This document shows positions 19,361 through 62,210 of a stretch of 64,000 nt of DNA, one piece after another (position 1 is the first letter of the stretch; the number at the start of each line of letters is the position of its first letter). The DNA comes from Escherichia phage LH01. The position numbers and the translations under genes were made by a program. The stretch lies in the sequence record PP434429; one strand, written 5' to 3'. A model generated the notes under the pieces. It did no database searches, was not told the DNA's origin, and worked only from the letters and a program-made list of their open reading frames with translations.

Positions 19361-19390
19361 ATAGTATCACACATCCATGTGCTTGTAAAC
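19361..19390 (-). promoter_or_regulatory. early promoter GTTTAC-N18-TACTAT
   Basis: Upstream of ORF 19038..19331; -35 abuts alt stop codon; imperfect inverted repeat in spacer. Confidence 0.5.
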
Positions 19391-21477
19391 TATCCTTGAA
19401 CAAATTTAAACGGAACCGATTCCAAATCCATTAAAGATGCTAACAGTTTCAATCCTTTAGGAGCACTAGTTTTTTCTACAAATGAGGAGAACGATACCGG
19501 CTCATCTGATTCGATTTCACCCGTCATAGCAACCACCTCGCCTGTTTCCATGAGAACATCACCATCGTAAATGACAGCTTCATCCAACTGGTCTGAGGAC
19601 ATGACTTCAGCTTGAATAAATTTAAGGTTGGATTCTAAACCTGCACCAGTGTCAGATGACGCATCTGTAATTTTATTTATCTGCAAGAGAATGCCTCTAG
19701 GCAAAATAATTTCTTGCTCATTAGGGTGATTACTCAACTGTCCTGGATAAATCACGTTAACTTTATGGGCGCCATCAATAGCCCATCCAACGTTAACACG
19801 GATTTGTTCTGGTGCATGCATAGCTGTTCTTACTTGACTAGGAGAAATAGTAACACCTTCGTCATTATTGTCAATGTTAAGCTCTTTGCGAACTTCTTCA
19901 GGAGCAAGTCCAAGGGCAACGTTCTCTTTAAACCCACCGAAAATAATAGGAGCTAGTGAAGTGGAAACATAGTTTCTGAAGTAGAATACCTTATTTTTAA
20001 CCATTGCTTCGTAAATAGGCATTCTGATAGACTGAGCTCTATATAACGTTAGTCCTTCAGGTAAACGGTCTCCATTTAAAAACGCCGAATCAAGACCATC
20101 AATAGCGCGTTTAACTTCATCTTCATCTGCAACATCGTAAAAATCTGGTTTATAACGACCTAACAACATATTATTGATATCGGTATACGCAGAAGAGGCA
20201 TATTCACGAATAGCTCGTTTTTCAGCAACAGAGTATTGTTTAGGGTCCCGATTCATTGTTATATTAAAGGTGCCTCTAGCCGATTCTCGTGCATAAGTAT
20301 ACATCACATTAGACAAGAACGCTGATTTACGTTGTTTCCAAGTTCTTTCAGATACTTCAGCTAAAACATCGTCAGGCAGTTGGAAATTATCTCGTCTAAA
20401 ATCTTCAAACCATTCGTCTCTAATAGAGTCTGCAATTTCGTTTGCAGCTTCAACAAAAGCAGCTAATGCTTTAACAGATGTTGTTTTTTCAGTTTTAATT
20501 TTCTTAGCAAACTTTTCTAAAGTCGGCTTAATAACGCTACCATAAGAAACTTCATCAGCAAATTTAAAGGATTCATCAATACGATTATAAATCTTATTTT
20601 CGATATCAGCAACTAAAGTGCCTTTTGCTGTGGACGATGCTTGGGCTAGTACAATTTCATATGCTTCAGGAAGTAATTCGGCTGTAGCTGGGCCACTAAC
20701 TTCTTTAGCAGAATTTTCGTATTTCTGGAATAGCTCACCTTCTTGGCGGTCAGCTTCTAAAGATTGACTTGCTGCAATAGCGCGACGAGAAATTTTAGTA
20801 CGAGCAATAACAGGCTTATCTTTACGTTTTTCTTCTACAGCAGCAATAGAACCCGCGATAGCCGTTTCTTTGGTGACTTTTTCGCCAGTCTTTTTACTCA
20901 CATAAACTTCACCAACATCAGAATCTACTTTCGTGTACAACTCTGTGTTAATGTTAGGGATGCCTTTAATATCTTCAATGTTGGCATTTTTACGAACCAT
21001 CATCACATAGGTGTGTTTACCTGTGAATTGATACATTGCCGACAACACTTTAAAACGACCGCCAGTTTTAGTAGAAACTAAACGAGCAAGAAGAGTTTGA
21101 AGCTGCTGTCCACGTCCTTTCAATTTCTTGGTAGGGAATCGGAACAGAACTGCATCCATACGAAGAGCTTTAACCTGTTCATATACTGTATTGAAAATAG
21201 TGTTGATTGCATCAATAGGAGCAGGACCAAGGCCATTTTTCAATTCAGCGAGATTACCCTTTTCAGACAGACTCATAATAACAACATGAGCGTATTTGTC
21301 GCCAAGTTTAACTTGTTTTACAGCGTCGCCTTCGGAAAGGTAAGAGAATAAACGAACTACAATATTTGTATCGATATCACCAATTTTCCAGACTTGTGGA
21401 ACTTTAGCTTTAGGGTTCAAATTGACGACAGGAAGACTGCCTTCAGATTCAAACACTTCATTTAATTGTTCAGACAT
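19390..21477 (-). CDS. alt: Alt ADP-ribosyltransferase (packaged, modifies host RNA polymerase)
   Basis: 695 aa; ART catalytic R-S-E pattern: YRAQ, YVSTS, EQEIILPRG; position between 54 and 30 as in T4. Confidence 0.87.
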   Translation of the reverse strand: MSEQLNEVFESEGSLPVVNLNPKAKVPQVWKIGDIDTNIVVRLFSYLSEGDAVKQVKLGDKYAHVVIMSLSEKGNLAELKNGLGPAPIDAINTIFNTVYEQVKALRMDAVLFRFPTKKLKGRGQQLQTLLARLVSTKTGGRFKVLSAMYQFTGKHTYVMMVRKNANIEDIKGIPNINTELYTKVDSDVGEVYVSKKTGEKVTKETAIAGSIAAVEEKRKDKPVIARTKISRRAIAASQSLEADRQEGELFQKYENSAKEVSGPATAELLPEAYEIVLAQASSTAKGTLVADIENKIYNRIDESFKFADEVSYGSVIKPTLEKFAKKIKTEKTTSVKALAAFVEAANEIADSIRDEWFEDFRRDNFQLPDDVLAEVSERTWKQRKSAFLSNVMYTYARESARGTFNITMNRDPKQYSVAEKRAIREYASSAYTDINNMLLGRYKPDFYDVADEDEVKRAIDGLDSAFLNGDRLPEGLTLYRAQSIRMPIYEAMVKNKVFYFRNYVSTSLAPIIFGGFKENVALGLAPEEVRKELNIDNNDEGVTISPSQVRTAMHAPEQIRVNVGWAIDGAHKVNVIYPGQLSNHPNEQEIILPRGILLQINKITDASSDTGAGLESNLKFIQAEVMSSDQLDEAVIYDGDVLMETGEVVAMTGEIESDEPVSFSSFVEKTSAPKGLKLLASLMDLESVPFKFVQG

Positions 21478-21511
21478 AGTGTTTTCCTTTTAGTAATAAT
21501 TTATATTTATG

Positions 21512-21533
21512 CCAAAAAGAGCCCGAAGGCTCT
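21512..21533 (-). terminator. terminator between gene 30 unit and alt
   Basis: AGAGCC-UUCG-GGCUCU hairpin followed on minus strand by UUUUUGG. Confidence 0.6.
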
Positions 21534-21742
21534 TAATCCACAATCGGAAGCAAAGTACGATAAACTTCAAAATTAGGGCCTTTTTCGTACTTATCAAAAT
21601 TGTCCATAAAAATATGATAGGAATCGTTATTAGGAAAATCTAATACAATTTGGGAACAAGAGGTGGAAACATCTCCACCATCCTTCTTAGCTACAATAAC
21701 TGTTTCTAAATAAGCTTTCATTATAAACCTGTCTGGGACCAC
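21533..21742 (-). CDS. hypothetical protein (69 aa track ORF, likely shorter)
   Basis: ORF between gene 30 and alt; 5' end overlaps gene 30. Confidence 0.45.
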   Translation of the reverse strand: MVPDRFIMKAYLETVIVAKKDGGDVSTSCSQIVLDFPNNDSYHIFMDNFDKYEKGPNFEVYRTLLPIVD

Positions 21743-23214
21743 GGTCCAAATACGTCTTCAAATGAATCCGCTTCTGTTTTATCAAAACGGAACCCTTTAA
21801 TAATTGGAAGGAAAATACCTACAGTGCCTTCACGTCCTTTAGAATGAACCCAACCATTACATTCGCAATCAGCAATACGTCCGATCAATTTACCTTCGCG
21901 AGCTTCGGTCATTAATCGTTCACGGTCTAAATCATGACGCTCATCTAAAGGAATAAGAACCTTTACACCATCAACTGTTTTATGAGTTGTATCTTTAAAC
22001 CCTGAACCACAATCGGTTGTAATACGACGACAACGTGATACGAGTTCGACACCACCTAATTTGTTAGGGTCTTTAGAGTGTTCATAGTATCCTACAACTT
22101 CCAAAGCGATATCAATAACTTCTTTAAATTTAATTAGGTTCTTAGAGCGTTTGTTTTCCCAGTATGAATCACGGTTTTTAAGGATAATACCTTCAAGACC
22201 TTGGTCAACATATTTTTTATAAACCACTTTAGCTTCATCAAGATTACGAACTAACTGGTTTTCGATAGGTTCAATTCGTTTAAAGCCTTCAGCCATATTT
22301 TCAAGAGCAGCAAAACGAACATCGTATTTCTGGCCTTTAATTTTGCCATCAGAATAGACTTCATCTAAAGGAACATAGTCCCAGGCTTGAAGAACCATAC
22401 CTTCAGCTTCTTTAGGAGAAATAGTCCCTTGAAGAGATTTATTTGCTAAACCGTTTGAAGTGCTACGGTCTGCAACTTGTACTTCTTCGGATTCTTCATT
22501 ATCGCCAAATAAGAACGACAGGTCATTTCCTGAGCTCACGGCCTTTTTAATATCAAATGAATGATAAACTAATTCACCGTCGATTAAAACCCCATTAGGG
22601 TGTCTTTCACGGGCTTCTTTAGTCATTTCCATTAGTTCATCTGCTAATAGGGTAAGACCATGGTATTCGTTACCAGCACGAGAAAAGAATTGAACGCCAT
22701 CATCGCGAACTTCAGCGAAACAACGAGCACCATCTGCCTTTAATTGAGCAAATGCAGGCCATTTAATATTTTTAGTAATCAATTTCTCATCATATGCAGA
22801 TGCTAACATCTGTGGCTGCAATTGAATAAGTCCAGGCCACACCTTATTCGCGATAGACACTGAAGCACCTACTTCAAGGTCTCGCATCATTACACGACGA
22901 AGGACTTCTACATCATCAGGTTTACCGTCAGCGATATAACCCATGAGCTCTTTAATTGCAGCATTACCAGTGAGTTTACGAGTGGCTAATGTGAACTCAA
23001 TAAAATCCAACATGTCATCTAATTCAAGAAGGCCATACGCTTGAGACCTTTCACCTGGACCTGGCCATTTCTTAATATAATACTGGATGCCACGCGCATA
23101 CGTTAAACGATATACACGTTCAAGTAATTTGTTGTCCTTATTTTTCTTAAGGATTTCTTGTTTTGTTTTAGTAGAACCGATCGCAGCTATTTGGTTTAAA
23201 ATATCTAAAATCAT
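21721..23214 (-). CDS. 30: ATP-dependent DNA ligase gp30
   Basis: 497 aa; adenylation motif KADGAR; matches T4 DNA ligase N-terminus (MIL.ILN.IA.IGSTK.KQ). Confidence 0.95.
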   Translation of the reverse strand: MILDILNQIAAIGSTKTKQEILKKNKDNKLLERVYRLTYARGIQYYIKKWPGPGERSQAYGLLELDDMLDFIEFTLATRKLTGNAAIKELMGYIADGKPDDVEVLRRVMMRDLEVGASVSIANKVWPGLIQLQPQMLASAYDEKLITKNIKWPAFAQLKADGARCFAEVRDDGVQFFSRAGNEYHGLTLLADELMEMTKEARERHPNGVLIDGELVYHSFDIKKAVSSGNDLSFLFGDNEESEEVQVADRSTSNGLANKSLQGTISPKEAEGMVLQAWDYVPLDEVYSDGKIKGQKYDVRFAALENMAEGFKRIEPIENQLVRNLDEAKVVYKKYVDQGLEGIILKNRDSYWENKRSKNLIKFKEVIDIALEVVGYYEHSKDPNKLGGVELVSRCRRITTDCGSGFKDTTHKTVDGVKVLIPLDERHDLDRERLMTEAREGKLIGRIADCECNGWVHSKGREGTVGIFLPIIKGFRFDKTEADSFEDVFGPWSQTGL

Positions 23215-23480
23215 TTGATGTCCTCGATTTTGGTTACGGTTCTATTATAAGCCACTTCGTCTAGAAGCGATTTCAGCGTTTTCTGATAAGTGGTAATCCA
23301 TTTACCAAGTCCTTCAACATAGTATTCTGAAATGTAGATGAACCCTTGTTCAACACACTCTTTAAATATTTCTGCGTCTTTTACTGAACGAAACACCGGC
23401 CAGTCTCGAAAGAACATGTTAACATGACCGTAGTCACGTGTGGTGTTTTTGCCATCTGTAATATCATGAACTACAAACAT
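23211..23480 (-). CDS. hypothetical protein (89 aa)
   Basis: ORF coupled to gene 30 start. Confidence 0.5.
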   Translation of the reverse strand: MFVVHDITDGKNTTRDYGHVNMFFRDWPVFRSVKDAEIFKECVEQGFIYISEYYVEGLGKWITTYQKTLKSLLDEVAYNRTVTKIEDIK

Positions 23481-23489
23481 AATTAACCC

Positions 23490-24314
23490 TTAACAATTTA
23501 TAGACCAAGTCCATTTAGACGAATCTAAAGGAAAGTTTTGAATCGTCCACCATGGCTGCATATCGGTTGGTCCTGGGGTTCGCCAGGTATATGGAGTACG
23601 TGTTGTCGAGGGGCCGCCAATTTGATTAGGCCATGCACCTGGACTTGTTGCACCAGATTCTTTAAGCAAATCAGCCAATCGTTTTAAAAGGTCTTCACGA
23701 TCTGAATCTGAATTATTCTTAGGCAGAACCAAACGAGATTCAATATCATCCCATGTGTGTACACGTTGTGCAGTGCGAGGAATGGCATCACGTTCACCAC
23801 GAGCCAACCAATAAATTGGTACATTAAGAATTTCTGCCGCATGGTCACAGTGATGAGCTAAATCATCAACATAACAAATCACGTTATATTTTGTTTTGGC
23901 TAGTTCGAATAATTGTTCTTTTGAAGAATCATGACCACACATCATTACTTCAGAGAAAGCGCCTGGGAACAAAGCATTCAAATTAAATTGTCTATTCAAT
24001 CGAGCATCAATTGAATCACCTAGCGCCGTCACGGCTACAAAATTATAGTCTTCTTTTAGTTTATTGATAACTCGAAGAGCATCCGAATAAGGCGCTAAGT
24101 AACGAATAAAATCAGAGCGATTATATTTTTCTATTAATTGTTTACCAAGGTTATCGTCAGTATTGAACAGTTTACCAGGAGAAATAAATTTTTCGTCCTG
24201 AATCATTTTTAAAATATGTTCTAATGGAAGATTATATTTTTGGGCAAAATAAGGAAGTCCAGATTGCCAACTTAAACATACACCATCAATATCAGTCAAA
24301 ATAGTAGGCTTCAT
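23490..24314 (-). CDS. HAD-like hydrolase / putative nucleotidase
   Basis: 274 aa; N-terminal HAD motif I ILTDIDGVCL; unusual Trp/Pro-rich C-terminal 55 aa. Confidence 0.55.
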   Translation of the reverse strand: MKPTILTDIDGVCLSWQSGLPYFAQKYNLPLEHILKMIQDEKFISPGKLFNTDDNLGKQLIEKYNRSDFIRYLAPYSDALRVINKLKEDYNFVAVTALGDSIDARLNRQFNLNALFPGAFSEVMMCGHDSSKEQLFELAKTKYNVICYVDDLAHHCDHAAEILNVPIYWLARGERDAIPRTAQRVHTWDDIESRLVLPKNNSDSDREDLLKRLADLLKESGATSPGAWPNQIGGPSTTRTPYTWRTPGPTDMQPWWTIQNFPLDSSKWTWSINC

Positions 24315-25161: not shown

Positions 25162-25215
25162 ATTTTTCCACTTACTAAAGAAATCATTATACTCTAATCC
25201 GTCCTTGGATGTAAA

Positions 25216-26231: not shown

Positions 26232-26272
26232 TTTATTCTCCGGATGTTTAAGTTGTTTGTTGGTACAGGTCT

Positions 26273-26301
26273 ATAATAACATAACCTGTACCAAAGTAAA
26301 C
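26273..26301 (-). promoter_or_regulatory. early promoter GTTTAC-N17-TATTAT with inverted repeat
   Basis: Arms TGGTACAGG 26261-26269 and CCTGTACCA 26285-26293 (9/9) flank the -10. Confidence 0.5.
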
Positions 26302-26716: not shown

Positions 26717-26745
26717 ATAGTAACACATCCTACAGGAGAGTAAAC
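26717..26745 (-). promoter_or_regulatory. early promoter GTTTAC-N17-TACTAT
   Basis: Homologous to the 26273 promoter but complementarity of arms is lost. Confidence 0.5.
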
Positions 26746-26770: not shown

Positions 26771-26799
26771 AACGCACAAAAGGGAGACCGAAGTCTCCC
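26771..26799 (-). terminator. terminator after small basic ORF 26805..26984
   Basis: GGGAGAC-UUCG-GUCUCCC hairpin followed on minus strand by UUUUGUGCGUUU. Confidence 0.65.
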
Positions 26800-30270: not shown

Positions 30271-30298
30271 TTCTATTTCCTCATTTGTTGGTAGAGTT

Positions 30299-30328
30299 AT
30301 AGTATCACAACTCCACCATGTTGTAAAC
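30299..30328 (-). promoter_or_regulatory. early promoter GTTTAC-N18-TACTAT with inverted repeat
   Basis: Arms TGGTAGAGTT 30289-30298 and AACTCCACCA 30309-30318 (9/10) flank the -10. Confidence 0.5.
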
Positions 30329-30330
30329 CA

Positions 30331-30606
30331 TTAAATTGCTTTGCATTCAATTTTTTGTGTACCGAAATTGATATCACACTGGATAACTAAATCACCATCA
30401 AGATCAAATACCACTATGACGTGCGCAGACCCAGGGAGAAGAGTAATAGCAATAGAATCTACTTGGTCTGGGAGCAAAGCATTGAGTACATGAGTTAGTT
30501 GAGCATGAACTCTGAGTTCGGCTGCATTATCAAGCACTTCAAACATATTATTAGCAATAATCTGACTGAAGACTACCTTTACAATTTCAGAATATTTAGG
30601 GAACAT
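30331..30606 (-). CDS. hypothetical protein (91 aa)
   Basis: ORF in early cluster. Confidence 0.45.
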   Translation of the reverse strand: MFPKYSEIVKVVFSQIIANNMFEVLDNAAELRVHAQLTHVLNALLPDQVDSIAITLLPGSAHVIVVFDLDGDLVIQCDINFGTQKIECKAI

Positions 30607-30613
30607 AATTACC

Positions 30614-30838
30614 TCAGTGCACAGTATTTACTTTAACTCGAACAACAAATCGCTCGGTTGGTTCACCTACAGGAACAAACTCTACATGATATTCGCCTTT
30701 GTATCGAGTATTCAGGTCATTACGAATTCCGGCGAGTTTGTTGATTAATGTAGGACTCATACTAAGTCCCACTAGTTTACGAAGCATTTTGTATGCTTCA
30801 TCTTCGATTTCATGATGTTTATCGTACATAGTTTTCAT
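30614..30838 (-). CDS. hypothetical protein (74 aa)
   Basis: ORF in early cluster. Confidence 0.45.
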   Translation of the reverse strand: MKTMYDKHHEIEDEAYKMLRKLVGLSMSPTLINKLAGIRNDLNTRYKGEYHVEFVPVGEPTERFVVRVKVNTVH

Positions 30839-32396: not shown

Positions 32397-32453
32397 TTAG
32401 ATTTCCTCAATTATCCATAGGAGCATTATAATCTGCTCCTGAGAGTTTGTAAA

Positions 32454-32678
32454 CTATTTTACTAAAGATTCAATATACTCGTGAAGAGCTTTAGTCGCTA
32501 CTGCCCACTTATTCTGATATTCATTTTTCAGATTAGCACGAGACTGAACTAACAATCGGTCATTAGTCGGAGGCAAAGATTCTAATCGTTGAATCTGGCG
32601 CCCATAAATCATAGCCGCCATTTCAGATTCATAGATAAGCCCTTTAATGTATTCATGCTGTTCTTTAGTCATTGGCAT
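32454..32678 (-). CDS. hypothetical protein (74 aa)
   Basis: ORF. Confidence 0.45.
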   Translation of the reverse strand: MPMTKEQHEYIKGLIYESEMAAMIYGRQIQRLESLPPTNDRLLVQSRANLKNEYQNKWAVATKALHEYIESLVK

Positions 32679-33830: not shown

Positions 33831-33860
33831 ATAGTAACACCATCCTTGGTGTTTGTAAAC
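33831..33860 (-). promoter_or_regulatory. early promoter GTTTAC-N18-TACTAT (alc)
   Basis: Spacer contains palindrome AACACC-aaggat-GGTGTT. Confidence 0.45.
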
Positions 33861-35013: not shown

Positions 35014-35043
35014 ATTGTACCACAATCCTTGTGGTATGTAAAC
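35014..35043 (-). promoter_or_regulatory. early promoter GTTTAC-N18-TACAAT (rnlA)
   Basis: Spacer contains palindrome ACCACAA-gga-TTGTGGT; -35 overlaps denA stop. Confidence 0.45.
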
Positions 35044-39051: not shown

Positions 39052-39306
39052 TTAATTATCCTCAGCAATAATTTCTTCATATTCTTTAGGAGTCAAGACT
39101 GTAATATCGAAATAAACCAGAGGCTCTTTTTCCATACCGAATCCACCACAGAATTCACGATATTCATAAATTCGTTCATGTGAATGGCAAATGAATCGTT
39201 CACCTTTAACTGTGATTTCACTATTCGGTGAAGGGATATCCAGTTCACTTGGATTTTTCATTTCAAAAATTGTGGTGCCATATGAATTAATAAAACGTAA
39301 AATCAT
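39052..39306 (-). CDS. hypothetical protein (84 aa from ATG at 39306)
   Basis: ATG immediately after td stop; track ORF to 39369 overlaps td. Confidence 0.45.
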   Translation of the reverse strand: MILRFINSYGTTIFEMKNPSELDIPSPNSEITVKGERFICHSHERIYEYREFCGGFGMEKEPLVYFDITVLTPKEYEEIIAEDN

Positions 39307-39307
39307 T

Positions 39308-40168
39308 TTATACCGCCATTTTAGCTTTGATAGCTGGATGTGATTCGTAATTTTTAAGAATGAAATCACTCGGATTCATATGCTCTGTTACCCAATGAAG
39401 CTGTAATGTCGTGCTCCAATCAGAGAATCCTTCAGGCCAATCAATTTTAAGTTCACACAGTTCTTTAGGCTCACGACGAAGAACTTCTTTGCATTGTTCT
39501 ACATGATTGCTGTAGATATGCGTGTTGCCGCCTGAGAACACTAAATCGCCCGGGATAAGATTACACATCTTAGCTACAATATGAGTCAAGGCAGCGTACG
39601 AGGCAATGTTGAATGGCAAACCCAAGAAAACATCAACACTTCTCTGGTACCATTGTAAATCAAGATGACCATTACGCACATTGAACTGATAGAACATATG
39701 GCAAGGAGGAAGAGCCATTTGATTTATTTCGGCCGGATTCCATGCAGAAACTATTTGACGACGATCATTAGGAAGAGCTTTAATGCGGTCGATAGTTTTG
39801 ACCAATTGGTCTACACCGCCAAAATCACGCCATTGCTTACCATAAATAGGACCAAGTTCGCCGCTATGATATCCAAGGTCTTTTGCCTGATTTTCATAGT
39901 TGTCGTCCCAAATAGTTTTACCTTGAATAAGACTACCGTGAGTACGAATACGTAAATCATTAACATTGGTAGAACCAGACATGAACCACAGTAACTCGGC
40001 AATACAAGCTTTCCATGCTAATTTCTTAGTTGTTACTGCAGGGAATCCTTTAGTCAGGTCCCAACGTAATTTAGTTCCGAACAGGGCAATTGTTCCTGTG
40101 CCTGTACGGTCGTCTGTTTCGTAGCCATTTTCTAGGATATCATTAATCAGGTATTGGTATTGTTTCAT
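39308..40168 (-). CDS. td: thymidylate synthase
   Basis: 286 aa uninterrupted; matches T4 Td (MKQYQ.LI.DI.ENGYETDDRTGTGTIALFG); active-site PPCH; no intron. Confidence 0.95.
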   Translation of the reverse strand: MKQYQYLINDILENGYETDDRTGTGTIALFGTKLRWDLTKGFPAVTTKKLAWKACIAELLWFMSGSTNVNDLRIRTHGSLIQGKTIWDDNYENQAKDLGYHSGELGPIYGKQWRDFGGVDQLVKTIDRIKALPNDRRQIVSAWNPAEINQMALPPCHMFYQFNVRNGHLDLQWYQRSVDVFLGLPFNIASYAALTHIVAKMCNLIPGDLVFSGGNTHIYSNHVEQCKEVLRREPKELCELKIDWPEGFSDWSTTLQLHWVTEHMNPSDFILKNYESHPAIKAKMAV

Positions 40169-40752
40169 TTATATACGCTCTCAGTAATTTCGGTGAGTTC
40201 ATCGATTCTGTAGTAATGAGATTCTACCATAGAACGTTGAAGCATAATATCTTGGATGAAATCTTTATCAAGTTGAACGTCTGAATTAACACGACATTTC
40301 TTAATGATTTTAGTCATCACAATTTCATCAGCATAAGGCAGTGCTTGTTTTAATAGAGCCGGGCCACCGATAACAGATACATCAACATGTTCAGTAGAAA
40401 GTTTAAATGGTACGTCTGTTGAAGGGCCGAACAAGTTAATTTCACTACCAGTCACCAGGGTAATAAATTCTGCTTGGGTGATATAGAACCGTGCAAGTTC
40501 GTCGCTTTTAGTCCTAGGCAGTTTTCTAGACATATCGGTGACAACTACATGAGTACGATCTGGGAGTAGACGAGGTAATGATGCAAAAGTCTTAGCACCC
40601 ATAACCATTACAGTGTTTTTAGTGCGAGCAACAAAGTTACTCATATCTTGTTTGATATGCTTCCATGGAAGTCCATCACCTAATCCAAAAGCATATTCCA
40701 GTTTATCATCAACTGTTTTAGACGGGGCACATGCAAATACTAATTTAAGCAT
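40165..40752 (-). CDS. frd: dihydrofolate reductase
   Basis: 195 aa; coupled to td; conserved GLGDGLPW and VIGGPALL. Confidence 0.9.
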   Translation of the reverse strand: MLKLVFACAPSKTVDDKLEYAFGLGDGLPWKHIKQDMSNFVARTKNTVMVMGAKTFASLPRLLPDRTHVVVTDMSRKLPRTKSDELARFYITQAEFITLVTGSEINLFGPSTDVPFKLSTEHVDVSVIGGPALLKQALPYADEIVMTKIIKKCRVNSDVQLDKDFIQDIMLQRSMVESHYYRIDELTEITESVYK

Positions 40753-41435: not shown

Positions 41436-41471
41436 TTTATTCTCCGTTGCTTCATTTGTTTTGACAGGGTA

Positions 41472-41501
41472 ATAGTATCACACCATTACCCTGTTGTATA
41501 C
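41472..41501 (-). promoter_or_regulatory. early promoter GTATAC-N18-TACTAT with 10-bp inverted repeat
   Basis: Arms ACAGGGTAAT 41464-41473 and ATTACCCTGT 41485-41494 (10/10) flank the -10. Confidence 0.45.
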
Positions 41502-41863
41502 TATTTTATTCCAAAAATTTCTTTAATTTCTGCAATCACATCTCGAGCATTTTCCGTAGTCACTTCAAAGATGAGTGATTGTTTAGAAATAGACTCTGGA
41601 GATACCTCGATGAAGTGTTTAAACTCATCATCATAAAGCTCAAAATATGAACCTGGCTTACCATCAAAACCGAATTCAGTACCGTCTCGCATAGTTACAC
41701 GGGTTACACATTTATCATCATCATAATCTGTGTTCATGTCTTTTACAACAAAACTAGGACCATGAAGCTCAATCAAAGCCAGCATATCGGCGTTTTGTGG
41801 GCATTCATTGGCGAAGATAGCTTTACATTCTGGATTGATGATATAAGTTTTTCCAATTTTCAT
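41501..41863 (-). CDS. hypothetical protein, paralogue A of tandem pair (120 aa)
   Basis: Shares N-terminal IGK.YIINP...FANEC...HGPSFVV and VTRVTM.DGTE with adjacent ORF. Confidence 0.5.
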   Translation of the reverse strand: MKIGKTYIINPECKAIFANECPQNADMLALIELHGPSFVVKDMNTDYDDDKCVTRVTMRDGTEFGFDGKPGSYFELYDDEFKHFIEVSPESISKQSLIFEVTTENARDVIAEIKEIFGIK

Positions 41864-41895
41864 TTTGATTTCCTCTCATTTGTTTTGATAGGACT

Positions 41896-41925
41896 ACTAT
41901 AACATAGCCCTATCTGATTGTACAC
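41896..41925 (-). promoter_or_regulatory. early promoter GTGTAC-N18-TATAGT with inverted repeat
   Basis: Arms TAGGACTA 41889-41896 and TAGCCCTA 41905-41912 (7/8) flank the -10. Confidence 0.45.
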
Positions 41926-42311
41926 TACTTTTTAAAAGTTTTTTGCAAAAGTTTGATGATTTCGTCGACGTTGGTTTCATCTACGATACAATGGATTTTT
42001 GTTACACCTAAAGTTATACCTTCGTTAGTAGATTGAGGCTTTTCTAAAGTTACCTCAGTAAAGTATTTGAATTCTTCAGAGTAAATCTCAAAATACGTCT
42101 CAAGTGGGCCACCAGCCATGTATTCAGTGCCGTCTTCCATAGTTACACGTACCACACAGTCACCAGCACAATCATCACTTTCCATTTCATCTACAACAAA
42201 ACTAGGTCCGTGCTTCTCTATTAAATTTAGCATCATTACATTGCAACGGCACTCGTTAGCAAAGTCATCTTTAAATAAAGGGTTAATGATATAAGATTTT
42301 CCGATTTCCAT
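41925..42311 (-). CDS. hypothetical protein, paralogue B of tandem pair (128 aa)
   Basis: Paralogue of 41501..41863; own GTTTAC promoter. Confidence 0.5.
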   Translation of the reverse strand: MEIGKSYIINPLFKDDFANECRCNVMMLNLIEKHGPSFVVDEMESDDCAGDCVVRVTMEDGTEYMAGGPLETYFEIYSEEFKYFTEVTLEKPQSTNEGITLGVTKIHCIVDETNVDEIIKLLQKTFKK

Positions 42312-42340: not shown

Positions 42341-42369
42341 ATACTAACACATTCAGGGAAGAAGTAAAC
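42341..42369 (-). promoter_or_regulatory. early promoter GTTTAC-N17-TAGTAT
   Basis: Upstream of ORF 41925..42311; lies between gene 32 terminator and the ORF. Confidence 0.4.
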
Positions 42370-42392: not shown

Positions 42393-42418
42393 ACTCAAAA
42401 GGGAGACCGAAGTCTCCC
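42393..42418 (-). terminator. terminator after gene 32
   Basis: GGGAGAC-UUCG-GUCUCCC hairpin followed on minus strand by UUUUGAGUAU. Confidence 0.7.
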
Positions 42419-50721: not shown

Positions 50722-50746
50722 GGGAGACTTCGGTCTCCCATTTTTG
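50722..50746 (+). terminator. terminator after gene 35
   Basis: GGGAGAC-UUCG-GUCUCCC hairpin followed by AUUUUUG. Confidence 0.75.
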
Positions 50747-56248: not shown

Positions 56249-56254
56249 AACGTT

Positions 56255-56744: not shown

Positions 56745-56818
56745 AGTCTTTACCCTTATGTTTTTGTTTGCGTTTAGATTGAAGTTCTGATTTCTTCTTG
56801 TCCTTATGGACAGAAGCC

Positions 56819-57046
56819 TTATTGAAATCGTGTTTTGCTACAAGATTGTTCATAATGATTTATAACCTCGTTTAAACATTTGTCTGTGAAAGAAAACTTT
56901 TTAGCCACAGAACATTCGATAATGTGTTCTTTCAAATCTTTAGAGTCAGTATAACCCATCTCAGTAATAAAGTGGCGAATTAAAGCTTTATTCTTATCAT
57001 TAACAGAATTAAAATAATCTGCTTTAGAATCAATTATTCTCATCAT
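56819..57046 (-). CDS. hypothetical protein (75 aa)
   Basis: ORF in asiA-motA interval. Confidence 0.45.
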   Translation of the reverse strand: MMRIIDSKADYFNSVNDKNKALIRHFITEMGYTDSKDLKEHIIECSVAKKFSFTDKCLNEVINHYEQSCSKTRFQ

Positions 57047-57311
57047 CTAATTTCCTTAATTGATATTGCAACGAGCTAATAATTTCTTCGTTCATTTTAA
57101 TATACATGTCGCGCAAGAAAGGTTTTAACCCATCACGAATAATTGCTAACGTATCACCTTTACATAAATTAACCAAATAAGGATGGTCTAAAGCATCCCA
57201 ACCAGGCTGATTAGCATACATACCATAATTTTCTTCCATCATATGATTAAGACGTTTGATATCTTGGATACGTGATTCAATAGCATCTTTCTGGAGTTGT
57301 TTAATATTCAT
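57030..57311 (-). CDS. hypothetical protein (93 aa)
   Basis: ORF, overlapping neighbours. Confidence 0.45.
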   Translation of the reverse strand: MNIKQLQKDAIESRIQDIKRLNHMMEENYGMYANQPGWDALDHPYLVNLCKGDTLAIIRDGLKPFLRDMYIKMNEEIISSLQYQLRKLDDENN

Positions 57312-57772
57312 TAATACAGGTCCTCTGAATAAAGTTCTTTCTCACTTCCGCCACGTGCAATACGTACCTGTCCAGCATACGTTGCAATAATCATTGCTTC
57401 TTCACGAGTCCAGTAATTAGAGTATTGGTCGATAAAGCCTTGGTCGTCGCCACAAACTTGTTGCGAGACTAATTGAGGACCAACTATATCAAGTACTTCA
57501 GCCATATCTTTAGAGTAATGACGAACTCCAGGAATAACCAGAGTTCCACCGCTCTTCAATTTAAACCTATTAGCTGCACATACTATAACACGTTGAACTT
57601 TTTGGTCATTGTTCCAATAGCACGTTTGCCAACAGATTTCAGGAACTTCATTCATTATATCATCAGCAGAATAATTATAACCGTAGGACTGGAATTTTTC
57701 TGCTAGACTTTCAGGAGTCTCACGAGACAAGGCCAAATCTAATAGCTCTAAACGTTCTTTAAATGATTTCAT
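57311..57772 (-). CDS. hypothetical protein (153 aa)
   Basis: ORF, ATGA-coupled to upstream ORF. Confidence 0.5.
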
Positions 57773-58098
57773 TTAAACCATTCCTTAATACGTTGCCAAA
57801 TAGATTTTTGTGCTTGTTTATTTACACCAATCGAACGAATAACCGGTTGTGACTGCTGATATTCTTTATAATCTTCTTTATAGATTTCGTAAGCTGCATC
57901 AACAAATGAACTGATCGCTGCCATGTAGTTTTTACGAAGGCCAAATGGCGCGTCATTATTTTCACGAATAACCGTATATTGACCTGCTTTAATCTTTACA
58001 ATTGTCCCTAAATAAGCCCCGTGGTACCAAATATCCCATCCTTCCTGAGTAGGTTCTGCACATTTACGAAGTTCGTTAATAATATTCAGCTTATTCAT
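57769..58098 (-). CDS. hypothetical protein (109 aa)
   Basis: ORF directly downstream of motA. Confidence 0.5.
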
Positions 58099-58108
58099 TA
58101 TGTATTCC

Positions 58109-58741
58109 TCACAGTACGTTAGTTACAAGGGTAATGATTTCTTTGGACACATTAGGGAAGTCAATGTAAGTATATTTACCACCGATCTTAATCTTAACAT
58201 CATTTTCAAGAGAAGTAAACAGCTTTGATTCGGTTTCTGACATGTTGTATGCAAAGATTCTAAGAGCGCCATCTCGTCGAATTTCAATTTGGCGAATACC
58301 TAGAACTCGTTTTGCAAATCGAACTTCTAAGTTACTACGGTTTTCACCAATTTCTTTAACTTCAACTTTATCTTTAATATTTTCAAAAACAAAGTTTGCT
58401 AATTCATGCATTTCAGGAGTAACTCCACGTGCTTTTCTGGTGTTACGTTTCTGAAGAAGTTCTGGAGCATTTTCTTGGGCAAAGAGGTCTGCAGCTTTTT
58501 GGATAATATCCATTGCTTCGCCTGTTGCTACAAGTCCATCACCGGATTTTTCGACTAAACCTTTCTTAATCAATACACCAATGTTAGAGTTAACAACTGA
58601 TGCATTGTATTCTGCTTCCAGAGCTTCACGGACATTGGCAGCAGTGGTGAAGTTGTTCTTAATGATATAAACCATTATTGCAGCAGTTTTTTCATTCAGA
58701 GCGTTTTCAGAAGCTTTGATGATGTAAGTAACTTTAGACAT
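58109..58741 (-). CDS. motA: middle-transcription activator MotA
   Basis: 210 aa; matches T4 MotA (MSKVTYIIKAS, SNIGVLIKKGLVEKSGDGL). Confidence 0.92.
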   Translation of the reverse strand: MSKVTYIIKASENALNEKTAAIMVYIIKNNFTTAANVREALEAEYNASVVNSNIGVLIKKGLVEKSGDGLVATGEAMDIIQKAADLFAQENAPELLQKRNTRKARGVTPEMHELANFVFENIKDKVEVKEIGENRSNLEVRFAKRVLGIRQIEIRRDGALRIFAYNMSETESKLFTSLENDVKIKIGGKYTYIDFPNVSKEIITLVTNVL

Positions 58742-58808
58742 TTTATTTCTCCAAATTAGTATTTGTTTTGATAGGTCTATAATATCATGTTTGAAGCAAA
58801 AGTAAACT
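58735..58808 (-). repeat. direct repeat copy A (promoter-leader-start cassette, motA)
   Basis: About 75 bp near-identical to 59054..59129, spanning -35, -10, leader, GGAG and ATGTCTAAA. Confidence 0.7.
58779..58807 (-). promoter_or_regulatory. early/middle promoter GTTTAC-N17-TATTAT with MotA-box-like TTTGCTTCA (motA)
   Basis: -35 GTTTAC followed by TTTGCTTCA, 17-nt spacer, TATTAT, GGAG RBS. Confidence 0.55.
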
Positions 58809-58844
58809 TTATTTTGGGCTCTTTTTCAAAAGCCCTGGTAAAAT

Positions 58845-59060
58845 TTACAAACTCATTTCTTTAATAAGGCTAATAAGTTTTGCCTTTTTAGAACGAAGCT
58901 TTTCTAAATGATACCCGTTTGAACCGCGAACAACTAAAGAATTGATTTCAACTTCTAAGAAATTTAATTCTTCAACAAGTGCTTTACGGGGAGCATTCAT
59001 ACCAGGTTTAACTTTACCGAAACGAGTAGTTGTGTTTTGGGTTAATTTCATTTTAGACAT
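58845..59060 (-). CDS. hypothetical small basic protein (71 aa)
   Basis: ORF preceded by a duplicate of the motA promoter-leader cassette, sharing the first codons MSK. Confidence 0.5.
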   Translation of the reverse strand: MSKMKLTQNTTTRFGKVKPGMNAPRKALVEELNFLEVEINSLVVRGSNGYHLEKLRSKKAKLISLIKEMSL

Positions 59061-59129
59061 TTTATTTCTCCAATTTGGTTGTTTTGTTTTGATAGGTCTA
59101 TAATATCATGTTTGAAGCACATGTAAACT
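59054..59129 (-). repeat. direct repeat copy B (promoter-leader-start cassette, ORF 58845..59060)
   Basis: Copy of the motA cassette with a 3-nt indel and a few substitutions. Confidence 0.7.
59100..59128 (-). promoter_or_regulatory. early/middle promoter, duplicate of motA promoter
   Basis: Near-identical copy (GTTTAC-ATGTGCTTCA...TATTAT) upstream of ORF 58845..59060. Confidence 0.5.
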
Positions 59130-59140
59130 GTTTTGTGAGG

Positions 59141-59170
59141 AAAAATGCACAAAAGGGAGCCGAAGCCCCC
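59141..59170 (-). terminator. terminator after gene 52
   Basis: GGGGGC-UUCG-GCUCCC hairpin followed on minus strand by UUUUGUGCAUUUUU. Confidence 0.65.
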
Positions 59171-59246
59171 TAATCATGTTTGTCCAACCAATACAGCCAA
59201 ATCACTAGTGCAGCTATTGCACTGAGAAATCCTAAGGCTAGGGCAC

Positions 59247-60572
59247 TCAAAGTGCCTCCAAGTCTTTAGTGTACTCTGTCACAACATCAGTAGACTTCCA
59301 ATACTCATTTTCTTCTTTCTTAGCTTTAGCTTCTTCTGCTAGTTTACGTGCTTCATCGGAAGTGATATGGAAGATGTTAAGACCTACCAGTTTATCGACA
59401 TGTTCTTTATACATTTCGATTTGTGCTAGCTCTTCGGTCAAAGCTTTACGAGTCTTGCCTTGAATCACAATTTCGCCACTGATAACTTTTTTGATGAAGT
59501 GTGCCTTAGCAAAAGCAAGTTTAAATGCTTTTTCAGATTCAAGGATTTTGTTGTCAATACGTTTCTGAACGTAAGTCTTACGGACTTCAACAAAATCTTT
59601 GATTAAGTCCACTACGTTATCGTAGACAGCTAATTTACCCTTTTCATTAATCACTGTGATGTTTTGTGAACGACGTTCGATGAGACTAAAATCTTTCATG
59701 ATTTTTTCATGACGTAGCTCTTCATCATCAGGAAGCGAGTACTCTTTACGGAACTTCACCTTAAACCCAAAGCCGTGTTCACCGCAATCATCTTCCCATG
59801 AGATTAGACCTTTGTCTTCCAACGGGTCAAGAACCTTACTCACATACGTTTCACGGTCGAATTTATATGGGATTTCAGTTATCTGCATTTGAGTACGAGA
59901 TGTGAACTTGTATGTTCCGTGAATCTCATAACGCCCATCAACTTCATGCACTTCACCACGGAATTCCGGGAATTCAACTTTTGGCTTAGTGACATTTTTA
60001 CCTTGAAGAGCTTGTAATACAGCCTTTTTTACCGATTTAAAACTATGAGGCAGAATATTTGTTGCGTAACCGGTTGCAATACCAGAGACACCATTCAAAA
60101 GAACTGTCGGAATAATAGGAAGATAGAATTTTGGTGGAATGTGTTCTTTATCTTCATGAGCTGGAGCATATTCAGTATCTTTATATACGTTATAGAAATT
60201 TTTACTTACACGAGCAAAAATATAACGAGATGCTGCAGCTTTTTGGACTGTTCTAGAACCAAAGTTGCCTTGGCCATCTAACAGCGGATAGTTGTTGTTC
60301 CATGTGTTAGCCATTAATGCACCTGCATCTTGTGCAGAAGATTCACCATGGTGATAACCTAAATCTGCAACACCGCCTGCAATTGACGCAAGTTTATGAA
60401 ATTTTTCTTTATTACCACGAGCCAAATCTAACGCACGATGAACCACAAAACGTTGAACCGGCTTAAATCCATCAATCATGTTTGGGATTGCACGGTTTTC
60501 AACGGTGTACATCGCATATGCTAAGGCTTCGTTATCAATAATACTTTTTAGATTACGAGAATTCAATTGCAT
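59247..60572 (-). CDS. 52: DNA topoisomerase II medium subunit gp52
   Basis: 441 aa; GyrA-like N-terminus with catalytic-tyrosine region (AASRYIFAR); matches T4 gp52. Confidence 0.95.
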   Translation of the reverse strand: MQLNSRNLKSIIDNEALAYAMYTVENRAIPNMIDGFKPVQRFVVHRALDLARGNKEKFHKLASIAGGVADLGYHHGESSAQDAGALMANTWNNNYPLLDGQGNFGSRTVQKAAASRYIFARVSKNFYNVYKDTEYAPAHEDKEHIPPKFYLPIIPTVLLNGVSGIATGYATNILPHSFKSVKKAVLQALQGKNVTKPKVEFPEFRGEVHEVDGRYEIHGTYKFTSRTQMQITEIPYKFDRETYVSKVLDPLEDKGLISWEDDCGEHGFGFKVKFRKEYSLPDDEELRHEKIMKDFSLIERRSQNITVINEKGKLAVYDNVVDLIKDFVEVRKTYVQKRIDNKILESEKAFKLAFAKAHFIKKVISGEIVIQGKTRKALTEELAQIEMYKEHVDKLVGLNIFHITSDEARKLAEEAKAKKEENEYWKSTDVVTEYTKDLEAL

Positions 60573-60576
60573 ATTT

Positions 60577-60717
60577 TCACCATATTAATGAACGAATAAC
60601 CATTATAATATCTGAAATGAAAAGCACTACTTGGATTAGTCCAAACATCACACCGTAGTACAGAACCGTAAGCAACAACAAGAGCCCAGAGGCTCCTGCT
60701 AAGATTTTCTTAATCAT
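60577..60717 (-). CDS. small hydrophobic membrane peptide (46 aa; absent from ORF track)
   Basis: Hand-translated MIKKILAGASGLLLLLTVLYYGVMFGLIQVVLFISDIIMVIRSLIW; TAATG-coupled to upstream small ORF. Confidence 0.4.
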   Translation of the reverse strand: MIKKILAGASGLLLLLTVLYYGVMFGLIQVVLFISDIIMVIRSLIW

Positions 60718-60863
60718 TACTCGCCTTTTAACACGTTAAGAAGAGCTAAGACCGCTAAGGTACCTTGTGATACCGCCTGTTGAAATACTGTTGTTTCGCC
60801 TGTAACTAAAGTGTTAACGAATAAAAACGACCAACACAGCAATGCAATAATCCATGCTACCAT
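60717..60863 (-). CDS. small hydrophobic membrane peptide (48 aa; absent from ORF track; ac-region-like)
   Basis: Hand-translated MVAWIIALLCWSFLFVNTLVTGETTVFQQAVSQGTLAVLALLNVLKGE; GAGGTAATT RBS. Confidence 0.4.
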   Translation of the reverse strand: MVAWIIALLCWSFLFVNTLVTGETTVFQQAVSQGTLAVLALLNVLKGE

Positions 60864-60915
60864 TTTAATTACCTCAAAAATAAATTAAAGGCCTAACTTA
60901 ATAGGCCTGTATAAA

Positions 60916-61362
60916 TTAGTAACTCTGCAGAATAAATTTGAAATTATCGGCCAGAAGACGGTTCATTTCAGTGAGTGTTTGATATTCTGATGTATGGTTG
61001 CGAGTGAACGCTAGAGCCAATTGTCCTTTACCATAACCAGTGGTCAGAGGTTTCATGTTCTTAGCTGAAACAAAGATTACATCATATTCAATATTATTAG
61101 TGCCCATGGTACGGGCGAGTTGTGAACGGCCTTGACGAATGTGAGAAAGAATTGCATCCAACCCTTGTTTAGAACGTTGACGTCCTACAAAGAATCGTGC
61201 TGCTACTTGTCGCCAGTCAGATGAACCTTTAACGAAGAAGTAAAAACCTTCACGAGAACGAAACTCTTTAGAAACTTCAGAACCGTATTCGCCATTACGA
61301 ACTACTGCAACAACTTCACCGCCAACTGCCAGAAGGTCTTTACGAGTTAAATATTTGGACAT
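60916..61362 (-). CDS. ndd: nucleoid disruption protein Ndd
   Basis: 148 aa; matches T4 Ndd ([50 protein letters not shown]). Confidence 0.85.
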
Positions 61363-61438
61363 GCTAATTTCCTCAATTGATTAATGTTTTTGTAATCCAT
61401 GAGAGCATTATACTCTGCTCTCAAGAGTTTGTACAATT

Positions 61439-61639
61439 TTATTCGGCTATATCAGAACGTTCAAAAAGCTCTTCAACAGTTAAACATTCAGTGTCATCTT
61501 CAATAAAGAATCGAGTCCAACACGTTGGGGCGATACAGTTATGAGTTTGTCCGGCGATAGAAGCTACACGAATAAGCTGCTGACCATTATTCAGAACAAA
61601 TTTTTCACCAATTTCAACATCTTTAAAAAGCTTAGCCAT
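61439..61639 (-). CDS. hypothetical protein (66 aa)
   Basis: ORF with GAGGAACAC RBS and inverted-repeat promoter. Confidence 0.45.
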   Translation of the reverse strand: MAKLFKDVEIGEKFVLNNGQQLIRVASIAGQTHNCIAPTCWTRFFIEDDTECLTVEELFERSDIAE

Positions 61640-61667
61640 TTTGTGTTCCTCATGTTTCAGTAGGACT

Positions 61668-61697
61668 ACTATACCATAATCCTACCTTGTTGTAAAC
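61668..61697 (-). promoter_or_regulatory. early promoter GTTTAC-N18-TATAGT with inverted repeat
   Basis: Arms TAGGACTA 61661-61668 and TAATCCTA 61677-61684 (7/8) flank the -10. Confidence 0.5.
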
Positions 61698-61889
61698 AAT
61701 TAAATTACATTAAAATATGTTAAAGCCAACCATGTTCCAGTGAACGAACATGCAATGTAAAAACCCGTATCACAAATTGTTCTTAGTACAATAAGAAGTG
61801 CATTTTTCATAAGTACCTCAACACAATTGAAAATATTATACAAATCATTGGGATACTAAGCAACCATATTCCTATCCACATTTTAGAGC

Positions 61890-62153
61890 TCATATCTCAA
61901 CTTCCGCAAGTTCCATATATCCTTTGTTGATAACCTCTTTAAGGTCTTTAGAAAGAATAACATTAAAATGGTCGTTCATATGCCCGTTAACCAGACGAGT
62001 TATTTCGGCTTCAGATGACATATAAGGCACGTCCGAGTCCCAATGAGATAGACCTAAATGAGTATAAATCATCCCTTCGTCGTCTGCAGTGTTGTACATT
62101 GAAACAAATTCGCCTGTTACTTTATGTTTTGCGTAGAAAAATTTAAATTTCAT
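61890..62153 (-). CDS. hypothetical protein (87 aa)
   Basis: ORF with GAGGATAAC RBS and inverted-repeat promoter. Confidence 0.5.
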   Translation of the reverse strand: MKFKFFYAKHKVTGEFVSMYNTADDEGMIYTHLGLSHWDSDVPYMSSEAEITRLVNGHMNDHFNVILSKDLKEVINKGYMELAEVEI

Positions 62154-62180
62154 AATGTTATCCTCATTTAGATAGGACTA

Positions 62181-62210
62181 CTATATCATAGTCCTACTTA
62201 GTTGTAAACA
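62181..62210 (-). promoter_or_regulatory. early promoter GTTTAC-N18-TATAGT with perfect 8-bp inverted repeat
   Basis: Arms TAGGACTA 62174-62181 and TAGTCCTA 62190-62197 flank the -10. Confidence 0.5.

Follow-up and report, generated by a model that had tools for sequence, protein, structure and literature searches.

Covarying, locus-specific inverted repeats inside the early promoters of an RB69-group coliphage and their tie to abutting genes

The closest described relatives of the element considered here are the promoter-early stem-loops (PeSLs) of T4-like phages. In the available text of their report, Arbiol et al. 2010 (PMC2839356) defined PeSLs in phages RB49 and phi1 as stem-loops that lie in the interval separating the -35 box from the -10 box or that overlap the latter, proposed a terminator or attenuator role for them (one RB49 stem-loop reduced a downstream lacZ about as much as rrnB T1), and showed recombination between them. 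The available part of Comeau et al. 2014 (PMC4122927) describes PeSLs in PST/T4 ('AGNA-loop-TCNT', with the promoter TTTACW-N17-TAYWAT) and in nt-1/KVP40. A stretch of 64,000 nucleotides from Escherichia phage LH01 (PP434429), referred to here in its entirety as the window, carries inverted repeats at the -10 box of about half of its strong minus-strand early promoters. These repeats are real, covarying and locus-specific, and they are tied to abutting upstream open reading frames (ORFs) and to the absence of an upstream terminator. We infer that they form hairpins in RNA in vivo and have an effect there.

The window comes from a T4-like coliphage that belongs to the genus Mosigvirus (RB69 group); Escherichia phages LF82-4, LF82-41, phiEC1 and Mizar match it best, with 97-98% identity. 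The minus-strand early and middle genes in the region include alt, DNA ligase, cd, pseT, alc, rnlA, nrdAB, td, frd, 32, 59, rnh and dda, among others. The motif GTTTAC-N17/18-TAnnnT has 19 exact matches in the window (1.9 expected), all 19 on the minus (gene) strand, and about 16 of them precede a Shine-Dalgarno (SD) sequence and ATG. Two extra promoters with a variant -35 box, GTGTAC at 41925 and GTATAC at 41501, also stand before an SD and ATG; an earlier, sequence-only reading of this DNA had cited them through their arms. The promoters are of the strong sigma-70 type, with an UP element, GTTTAC, TGn and TAnnnT; the upstream AT content in the window is 0.7-0.9, and TGn and the -10 box are conserved. 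In related loci the motif occurs 274 times on the gene strand vs 13 times on the opposite strand.

Like PeSLs in the available descriptions, these elements combine an AT-rich upstream region, sigma-70-like boxes and a stable stem-loop, inside the promoter or adjacent to it, whose stem may include G:T pairs, with an SD and start codon at the 3' end and an upstream stop codon at the 5' end. They lie between small, non-essential early ORFs and at the edges of indels and replacements among relatives, which is consistent with PeSLs and not exclusive to them. These sequence features, together with homology breakpoints at the promoters, place the Mosigvirus elements among the PeSLs. The suggestion in the sequence-only reading that the arrangement was undescribed thus falls, as the PeSL architecture is already published; the gain is a refinement and an extension to the RB69 group, which lies outside the PeSL analyses in the published text available. 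The window stems are of mixed sequence, with 40% GC pairs and no U-tract, and in this they differ from the published polyG/polyC stems as far as the available text describes them. In the 2014 legend, in the part available, the stems of PST/T4 stand 'just upstream of the promoter'; the form that brackets the -10 box may not be explicit there for T-even-type phages. The available text of the two papers holds no mention of abutting stops, terminator exclusion, the absence of a U-tract or a register preference. The standard review of T4 transcription does not mention the dyad, and nothing usable was found in the literature on T4 transcript 5'- and 3'-end maps.

A second group of related structures is found at T4 e, soc, 49 and I-TevI, where hairpins sequester the ribosome-binding site (RBS) in long transcripts and a promoter is internal (PMC3014915). 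There, as in the window, the promoter lies in the 5' half of the hairpin, local transcripts lack the 5' arm, and upstream-initiated RNA alone folds. The T4 promoters are late or middle ones, with a 3' arm that extends over the SD or AUG, whereas the window promoters are sigma-70 early promoters and the arm stops about 15-20 nucleotides (nt) before the AUG. Pairing of a 3' arm with the SD or start codon was found in relatives, at other promoters, and not among the window hairpins. Two more distant parallels are worth setting beside these. Repetitive extragenic palindromic (REP) elements of E. coli operons are intercistronic hairpins without a terminator tail that are thought to block 3' exonucleases and to set the relative stability of cistrons. 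REPs are a repeated sequence family located outside promoters, while the embedded hairpins differ in sequence and are built from promoter positions. The early promoters of phage N4 are DNA hairpins with a short conserved stem and loop that are recognized by the virion RNA polymerase. In both phages an inverted repeat is integral to an early promoter; the N4 hairpin is the recognition element of a phage polymerase, whereas the window promoters are ordinary sigma-70 promoters with variable arms, and half of them lack the hairpin.

Complementarity and covariation of the arms

Each spacer was compared with its own downstream sequence and with the downstream sequences of other promoters, so that any complementarity inherent in the promoter consensus is controlled for. 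Within the window, own pairs had a longest Watson-Crick (WC) stem of 5.33 on average and cross pairs one of 3.88 (permutation p = 5e-5), and four promoters had WC stems of at least 7 base pairs (bp), compared with 0.29 expected in spacer shuffles. The cross-genome tests drew on the surroundings of gp32, dda, pseT and rnlA in about 55 T4-like genomes (the polynucleotide kinase query gave 7 related loci and an RNA ligase query was used in its place) and, after clustering, on 247 non-redundant promoters. Stem scores of at least 8 were reached by 26.7% of own and 2.7% of cross pairs, and scores of at least 10 by 13.4% and 0.37%, respectively. Complementarity between spacer and downstream sequence therefore exceeds that of both shuffled and cross-promoter controls. 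Spacer positions -16 to -6 carry near-zero information, which indicates that the spacer is free to evolve.

A spacer-to-downstream inverted repeat is present at 7 of 18 minus-strand early promoters in the window, and two more promoters have a palindrome inside the spacer. Six of the seven had been listed in the sequence-only reading, and all six are present. Pairing is 10/10 for 41464-41473/41485-41494, 9/9 (extendable to 11) for 26261-26269/26285-26293, 9/10 for 30289-30298/30309-30318, and 7/8 each for 61661-61668/61677-61684 and 41889-41896/41905-41912, the odd pair being G:T in each of the last three. The remaining pair stands as a repeat once its coordinates are shifted by one base, the arms proper being TAGGACTA/TAGTCCTA (62189-62196/62173-62180). 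The seventh case, at promoter 32454 (AGGAGCA/TGCTCCT), is an addition to that list. The two spacer palindromes (promoters 33860 and 35043) and the four promoters named as hairpin-free are as had been described, and the element is facultative.

Folded as RNA, the seven hairpins that overlap the -10 box have free energies of -12.2 to -19.1 kcal/mol and z-scores of -3.0 to -6.8. Their stems are 10-15 bp in six cases and 7 bp at 32454, and the loops are 3-8 nt, dimensions that follow from the recruitment of part of the -10 box to the stem through G:U pairs. In nine other promoters of the window no RNA structure exceeded that of shuffled sequences. Sorted by position, 7 hairpins in the window overlap the -10 box, 2 lie inside the spacer and 4 lie upstream of the -35 box. 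A search of the whole window against Rfam 15 at the gathering threshold gave 0 matches.

Orthologous promoters were assigned via the downstream protein. At the ortholog locus of T4 frd.1 a stem is present in 26 of 27 promoters, with 19 distinct arm pairs (for example ACAGGGTAAT/ATTACCCTGT, GGTGTAAGAT/ATCTTACACC and GTTGATAGGGTA/TACCCTATCAAC). The hairpin is kept in 26/27, 33/40 and 19/28 orthologs of three families vs 2/26 and 4/25 of two others, and this consistent presence or absence indicates that having a hairpin is a conserved property of the locus. Covariation was scored in the commonest register on an ungapped alignment of 38 orthologs unselected for structure. Paired cells made up 58.3% of the total vs 47.1% after shuffling, a value that 0 of 500 shuffles attained, and the covariation score was 0.340 vs 0.185 for shuffled alignments and 0.11-0.16 with a slid partner. 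Change in one arm only was not seen as a rule, since 12 of 12 pairs change on both sides. With pairing kept across 97 distinct arm pairs among the related promoters, the proposal that the repeat is a structure and not a protein-binding site is upheld.

The geometry of the stem can be described by a register, the sum of the paired indices when index 0 is the first T of the -10 box. The preferred register is +1, which places the dyad axis between T-12 and A-11 (28 promoters vs 1.4 expected) and is aided by the quasi-palindromic extended -10 consensus TGTGaTAyTAT; registers -6 to -4 and 11-12 are enriched as well. Transcription start sites (TSSs) were estimated as the end of the -10 box plus 7, a rule that reproduces the name of T4 promoter Pe133295, and the 3' arm ends at about +1 to +5. 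As the TSS falls inside or just after the 3' arm, a promoter's own transcript lacks the 5' arm and the hairpin can fold in read-through RNA only. Strong examples in T4, located by pattern because promoters are not among the annotated features of the T4 RefSeq record, are Pe146107, Pe133295 and Pe129883.

Stop codons and terminators at the junctions

For this comparison an embedded hairpin was defined by a minimum free energy of -10 or lower, which gave 58 such promoters and 187-188 others. The distance from the stop codon of the co-directional upstream ORF to the -35 box has a median of 2 nt at the hairpin promoters vs 37 nt at the others (p = 3e-10). A co-directional upstream ORF is lacking at just 1 of 58 hairpin promoters vs 24 of 187 others (p = 0.012), and a terminator-like hairpin at most 70 nt upstream was found at 0 of 58 vs 37 of 188 (p = 3e-5). 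Embedded hairpins become rarer as the gap between stop and -35 box widens, from 46% at gaps of up to 10 nt to 16% at 11-30 nt and 5% above 30 nt; in this last class 57% of the junctions have an upstream GC hairpin. Where the gap exceeds 10 nt, an embedded hairpin occurs at 7 of 56 junctions without an upstream hairpin vs 1 of 57 with one (p = 0.03). The window follows the same pattern, as promoters 42369, 26745, 59128 and 58807 have an upstream terminator or GC hairpin and all four lack an embedded one. This stop-codon and terminator context is the most informative new result. The 5' arm starts 9-13 nt past the stop codon, a distance that probably corresponds to the edge of the terminating ribosome's footprint.

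Possible roles of the hairpin

The reading preferred here, to which we assign a probability of about 60%, is that PeSLs act as intercistronic RNA hairpins in read-through transcripts and are packed into the only free sequence of the promoter. The otherwise unconstrained spacer would have evolved to pair with the stretch that runs from within the -10 box (its 3' part) to about +5. The local transcript would start inside or just after the 3' arm and have no hairpin, while RNA reading through from the upstream co-directional gene would hold both arms and fold a hairpin of 10-15 bp and -12 to -19 kcal/mol, with G:U pairs drawing the -10 box into the stem. The hairpin would stand directly after the upstream stop, and the next gene would keep its A/C-rich leader, its SD and its AUG free of pairing. 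It would be placed inside the promoter because the stop abuts the -35 box and the spacer is the sole free sequence. It may substitute for the intergenic stem-loop or terminator of roomier junctions and so punctuate the polycistronic early RNA; possibly it blocks 3'-to-5' decay, caps the 5' end left by processing or attenuates weakly. The leader that follows the early promoters (index +8 to +21 from the start of the -10 box) is depleted of G to 4-7% and rich in A and C, a composition that would leave it unstructured and rut-like, and the embedded hairpin pairs just its first few bases. Among the three roles that the sequence-only reading had offered (a DNA cruciform, an RNA hairpin in read-through transcripts and a recombination-prone structure), the RNA hairpin fits best, given a co-directional ORF end about 2 nt from the -35 box and the lean of stem mismatches towards G:U.

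That lean was measured on the internal mismatches of the 97 distinct stems, in which G:T(U) on the sense strand outnumbers A:C by 26 to 10 (p = 0.011), or 24 to 10 when counted per cluster; an earlier, smaller count of 24 stems gave 5 vs 3, with no strand bias. Sense folds are also more stable than antisense folds (55 vs 17, p = 6e-7). This second asymmetry was rejected as decisive proof of RNA, as it stems largely from G:U pairs of the consensus and falls to 40 vs 26 (p = 0.04) with the core masked; its support for an RNA role is weak. Promoter spacers do serve as RNA arms in relatives, as shown by a second class of spacer that pairs over 12-14 bp with the SD region 20-35 nt downstream (24 vs 3.4 expected). 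Such anti-SD pairings, for example TCCTCATTTTGTTG/CAACAAAATGAGGA and TCTCCATTTGGTTG/CAACCAAATGGAGA, occur chiefly at alc and 30.7 orthologs (related loci L159 at about 11149, L132 at about 11134 and 19258, and L019 at about 20599), and they make sense at the RNA level only.

Several observations weigh against the intercistronic-hairpin reading. Of 58 embedded hairpins, 1 has 5 or more T among the 8 nt that follow its stem, the tails are 52% A, and a scan for terminators detected none of the embedded hairpins. The link with missing terminators could simply reflect that there is little space. The hairpin is not required, being absent from about half of the promoters with an abutting ORF. The strand asymmetry of the mismatches is modest and partly a product of the TGTG/TAyTAT consensus; at non-consensus positions the ratio is 17:7 (p = 0.06). 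The related genomes are non-independent samples, despite clustering.

The absence of the U-tract means that the embedded hairpins are not canonical intrinsic terminators, and canonical termination was rejected on this ground and on that of the terminator scan. The same two reasons cast doubt here on the role as terminator that the PeSL papers proposed. Intrinsic terminators likewise set a stable stem-loop straight after a stop, at the same type of junction, and the two are mutually exclusive. A GC-rich hairpin with an immediate U-tract is not what the embedded elements present: GC pairs make up 40% of their stems, they have no UUCG tetraloop, and the genome's own terminators read GGGAGACTTCGGTCTCCC-TTTT.

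If the hairpins do act in read-through RNA, the covariation of spacer and start site is explained by a 'free' spacer that doubles as a hairpin arm. T4-type early promoters rank among the strongest known, and genes are packed tightly against them. An annotation rule for the junctions follows, with a terminator upstream of the promoter or else a hairpin within it, and the elements offer handles on the stabilization, attenuation and translation of delayed-early RNA. A bolder version, to which we give a low probability, would have the hairpins provide terminator-free transcript punctuation wherever an ORF abuts a promoter, gated by the ribosome that terminates 9-13 nt before the 5' arm, with spacers of both classes, hairpin and anti-SD, forming an RNA 'switchboard'. 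Such a switchboard would set for each gene whether read-through (delayed-early) RNA is stabilized and translated or silenced, and it would bear on the immediate-early vs delayed-early question in T4.

Translational control is the rival that survives best and is still rather unlikely. The read-through hairpin would tune translation of the downstream gene, by insulating the leader and SD from G-rich promoter sequence, by blocking 70S scanning or re-initiation, or by silencing the SD with its 3' arm; under this last mode protein would come only from locally started transcripts or from ribosomes finishing the upstream ORF. The anti-SD spacers of relatives, especially at the alc and 30.7 orthologs, fit this rival, and the 5' arm probably begins at the edge of the ribosome's footprint. 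Established T4 cases with the same logic are e, soc, 49 and I-TevI (PMC3014915). The anti-SD spacers appear to be the early-promoter version of the e/soc/49 mechanism, of which no description was found, and a read-through RNA that carries one should be translationally silent or coupled to the upstream ORF. In the window the evidence runs the other way: when the seven strong cases are folded with their whole read-through surroundings, leader, SD and AUG stay free of pairing in each, the 3' arms stop 15-20 nt ahead of the AUG, and promoter 26745 alone has an SD-type pairing, a weak one (TCTCC/GGAGA).

A slightly less probable rival holds that the repeats are mostly a DNA-level by-product, in which templated (quasi-palindrome, strand-switch) mutation, or gene conversion among the repeated promoter cassettes, maintains the match between the arms, that they serve at most as recombination substrates for module shuffling, and that they have no RNA function. 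Homology breakpoints against four relatives fall at 26301/26302, 41506/7, 30271-30617, 32397-32668 and 58843-59051, and the edges of insertions and replacements lie at -35 boxes or start codons. These agree with the PeSL literature in its available text and with the recombination-prone structure imagined in the sequence-only reading. As the breakpoint analysis was made without a control of promoter-free gene junctions, this evidence is supportive only; it is consistent with PeSLs and not exclusive to them. The rival also draws on mini-circles and intra-PeSL cross-overs shown experimentally in RB49/phi1 (PMC2839356, in the text available), on the inter-arm segment of Pe133295, which by a note in the T4 record was once reported inverted, on near-identical promoters that flank an ORF without a homolog in one relative, and on three paralogous copies that share TATAGTAGTCCTA. 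These copies, promoters 62209, 61697 and 41925, have that core and the 3' arm TAGTCCTA in common, and their 5' arms differ solely by wobble-compatible changes. Mutation alone does not predict the tie to abutting co-directional ORFs and to the absence of a terminator, and it sits poorly with the lean to G:U on the sense strand and with a hairpin that is kept at the same loci, with turnover of its arm sequence, though the downstream proteins are 45-50% identical. Under the intercistronic-hairpin reading the two levels coexist, the conserved promoter cassette and its arms marking the edges of gene-sized insertions and replacements as well, in the way proposed for PeSL shuffling, and acting as a recombination joint.

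It is improbable that a DNA cruciform or hairpin formed under negative supercoiling aids or gates melting of the -10 box or regulates promoter strength or shut-off. The commonest dyad axis does lie between T-12 and A-11, where melting nucleates, and early-promoter shut-off (PMC3014915) and the promoter specificity of Alt stimulation (PMC2988021) are unexplained. That register comes in part from the quasi-palindromic consensus, however, and the other enriched registers show that it varies. Arms perfect on both strands around a short spacer were not found: WC-only arms are 7-11 bp long and 8-13 nt apart, and the tighter fold depends on G:T pairs, for which the other strand has A:C. Moreover, the hairpin follows the context of the upstream ORF, which an aid to melting would not need, and half of equally good promoters do without it. 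The cruciform suggested in the sequence-only reading is thus not borne out.

Chance, or a side-effect of a consensus with a G-rich spacer and a C/T-rich start region, can be dismissed in spite of the weak AGG...CCT complementarity of the consensus and the G-depleted leader, since it was rejected by the own/cross, shuffle and covariation tests: own pairing is 10-36 times more frequent than pairing with other promoters, the spacer carries near-zero information, and covariation exceeds that of shuffled and slid controls.

Promoters and neighbouring features in the window

Table 1. Early promoters of the window with their hairpin arms, and stem-loops located upstream of hairpin-free promoters.
Feature	Coordinates	Strand	5' arm	3' arm	Remarks
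Early promoter 62209, embedded hairpin	62172..62209	-	GTAGGACTAT 62188-62197	GTAGTCCTAT 62172-62181	-35 GTTTAC 62204-62209; -10 TATAGT 62180-62185; estimated TSS ~62173; RNA -13.2 kcal/mol, z -3.0
Early promoter 61697, embedded hairpin	61659..61697	-	GGTAGGATTAT 61676-61686	GTAGTCCTACT 61659-61669	-10 TATAGT 61668-61673; three G:U pairs; -13.6 kcal/mol, z -4.1
Early promoter 41925, embedded hairpin	41887..41925	-	GATAGGGCTAT 41904-41914	GTAGTCCTATC 41887-41897	Variant -35 GTGTAC overlaps upstream TAG stop; -16.0 kcal/mol, z -6.8
Early promoter 41501, embedded hairpin	41464..41501	-	ACAGGGTAATGGTG 41481-41494	TACTATTACCCTGT 41464-41477	-35 GTATAC overlaps upstream TAG stop; 14-bp RNA stem; -10 TACTAT within 3' arm; ortholog of T4 Pe146107, upstream of frd.1; -19.1 kcal/mol, z -5.8
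Early promoter 32454, 7-bp embedded hairpin	32419..32454	-	AGGAGCA 32434-32440	TGCTCCT 32419-32425	-12.2 kcal/mol, z -3.2
Early promoter 30328, 13-bp RNA stem	30289..30328	-	TGGTGGAGTTGTG 30306-30318	TATAACTCTACCA 30289-30301	Three G:U pairs, loop AUAC; ortholog of T4 Pe133295; -16.9 kcal/mol, z -5.9
Early promoter 26301, 15-pair hairpin	26260..26301	-	TTGGTACAGGTTATG 26280-26294	TATAGACCTGTACCAA 26260-26275	Ortholog of T4 Pe129883, upstream of 30.7; -17.9 kcal/mol, z -5.2
Early promoter 33860 upstream of alc, hairpin all within spacer	33831..33860	-	AACACCA 33847-33853	TGGTGTT 33836-33842	Weak: -8.0 kcal/mol, z -1.2
Early promoter 35043 upstream of rnlA, spacer hairpin reaching into -10	35014..35043	-	TACCACAA 35029-35036	TTGTGGTA 35018-35025	-8.3 kcal/mol, z -2.3
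Promoter 42369 without embedded hairpin	42341..42369	-			Behind terminator GGGAGACTTCGGTCTCCC + TTTT (42401-42418), after gene 32
Promoter 26745 without embedded hairpin	26717..26745	-			Behind identical terminator GGGAGACTTCGGTCTCCC + TTTT (26782-26799)
Two near-identical promoters without embedded hairpins (59128, 58807)	59100-59128, 58779-58807	-			Flank ORF 58845-59060
Stem-loop upstream of promoter 59128	59155-59170	-			GGGGGCTTCGGCTCCC + T-run
Stem-loop upstream of promoter 58807	58816-58835	-			GC hairpin GGGCTTTTGAAAAAGAGCCC

The terminator GGGAGACTTCGGTCTCCC, with a UUCG tetraloop, is a repeated terminator module on both strands. It occurs in four identical copies where 0 are expected, at 3685-3702 and 50722-50739 on the plus strand and at 26782-26799 and 42401-42418 on the minus strand. 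The minus-strand copies have the T-run tails TTTTGTGCG and TTTTGAGTAT and stand just upstream of hairpin-free early promoters; read on the plus strand, the copy at 42401 has the tail AATTTATTAT instead.

Two blocks on the minus strand, 30271-30617 and 32397-32668, are not present in Tequatrovirus-like relatives. Each holds one small ORF and a hairpin promoter at the 3' end of that ORF, and in the relatives without the blocks the flanking genes are joined by a stop-start overlap. To judge from this arrangement, the mobile unit seems to be an 'ORF plus downstream promoter'. The near-identical promoters (…GCTTCAAACATGATATTATAGACCTATCAAAACAAA…) at 58779-59128 on the minus strand flank a 71-amino-acid ORF (58845-59060), to which one relative has no homology. 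At 41501-41863 and 41925-42311 on the minus strand lie tandem paralogous small ORFs (MKIGKTYIINP.../MEIGKSYIINP...) that are 58% identical by tblastn, each with its own early promoter; the pair looks like a cassette duplication between promoter repeats.

A perfect GTTTAC-N18-TACTAT match at 6870-6899 on the minus strand has no SD and ATG behind it, is followed by the inverted repeat GCCGAGACAGCTCGGT at about 6840-6860, and may be located inside a gene. The T4 record NC_000866 carries a note at 133300-133313 (13300-13313 of locus L181) that reads 'inverted complement of previously reported sequence; corrects the early promoter Pe133295'. Those 14 nt are the exact segment between the GGTAGAG and CTCTACC arms of the Pe133295 hairpin, and the earlier sequence thus had the loop flipped between the inverted repeats. 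In LF82-4, the closest annotated relative, a homing endonuclease splits the thymidylate synthase gene td (20642-21379 of locus L119; about 39300-40170 of the window), whereas td in the window is an uninterrupted ORF of 286 amino acids.

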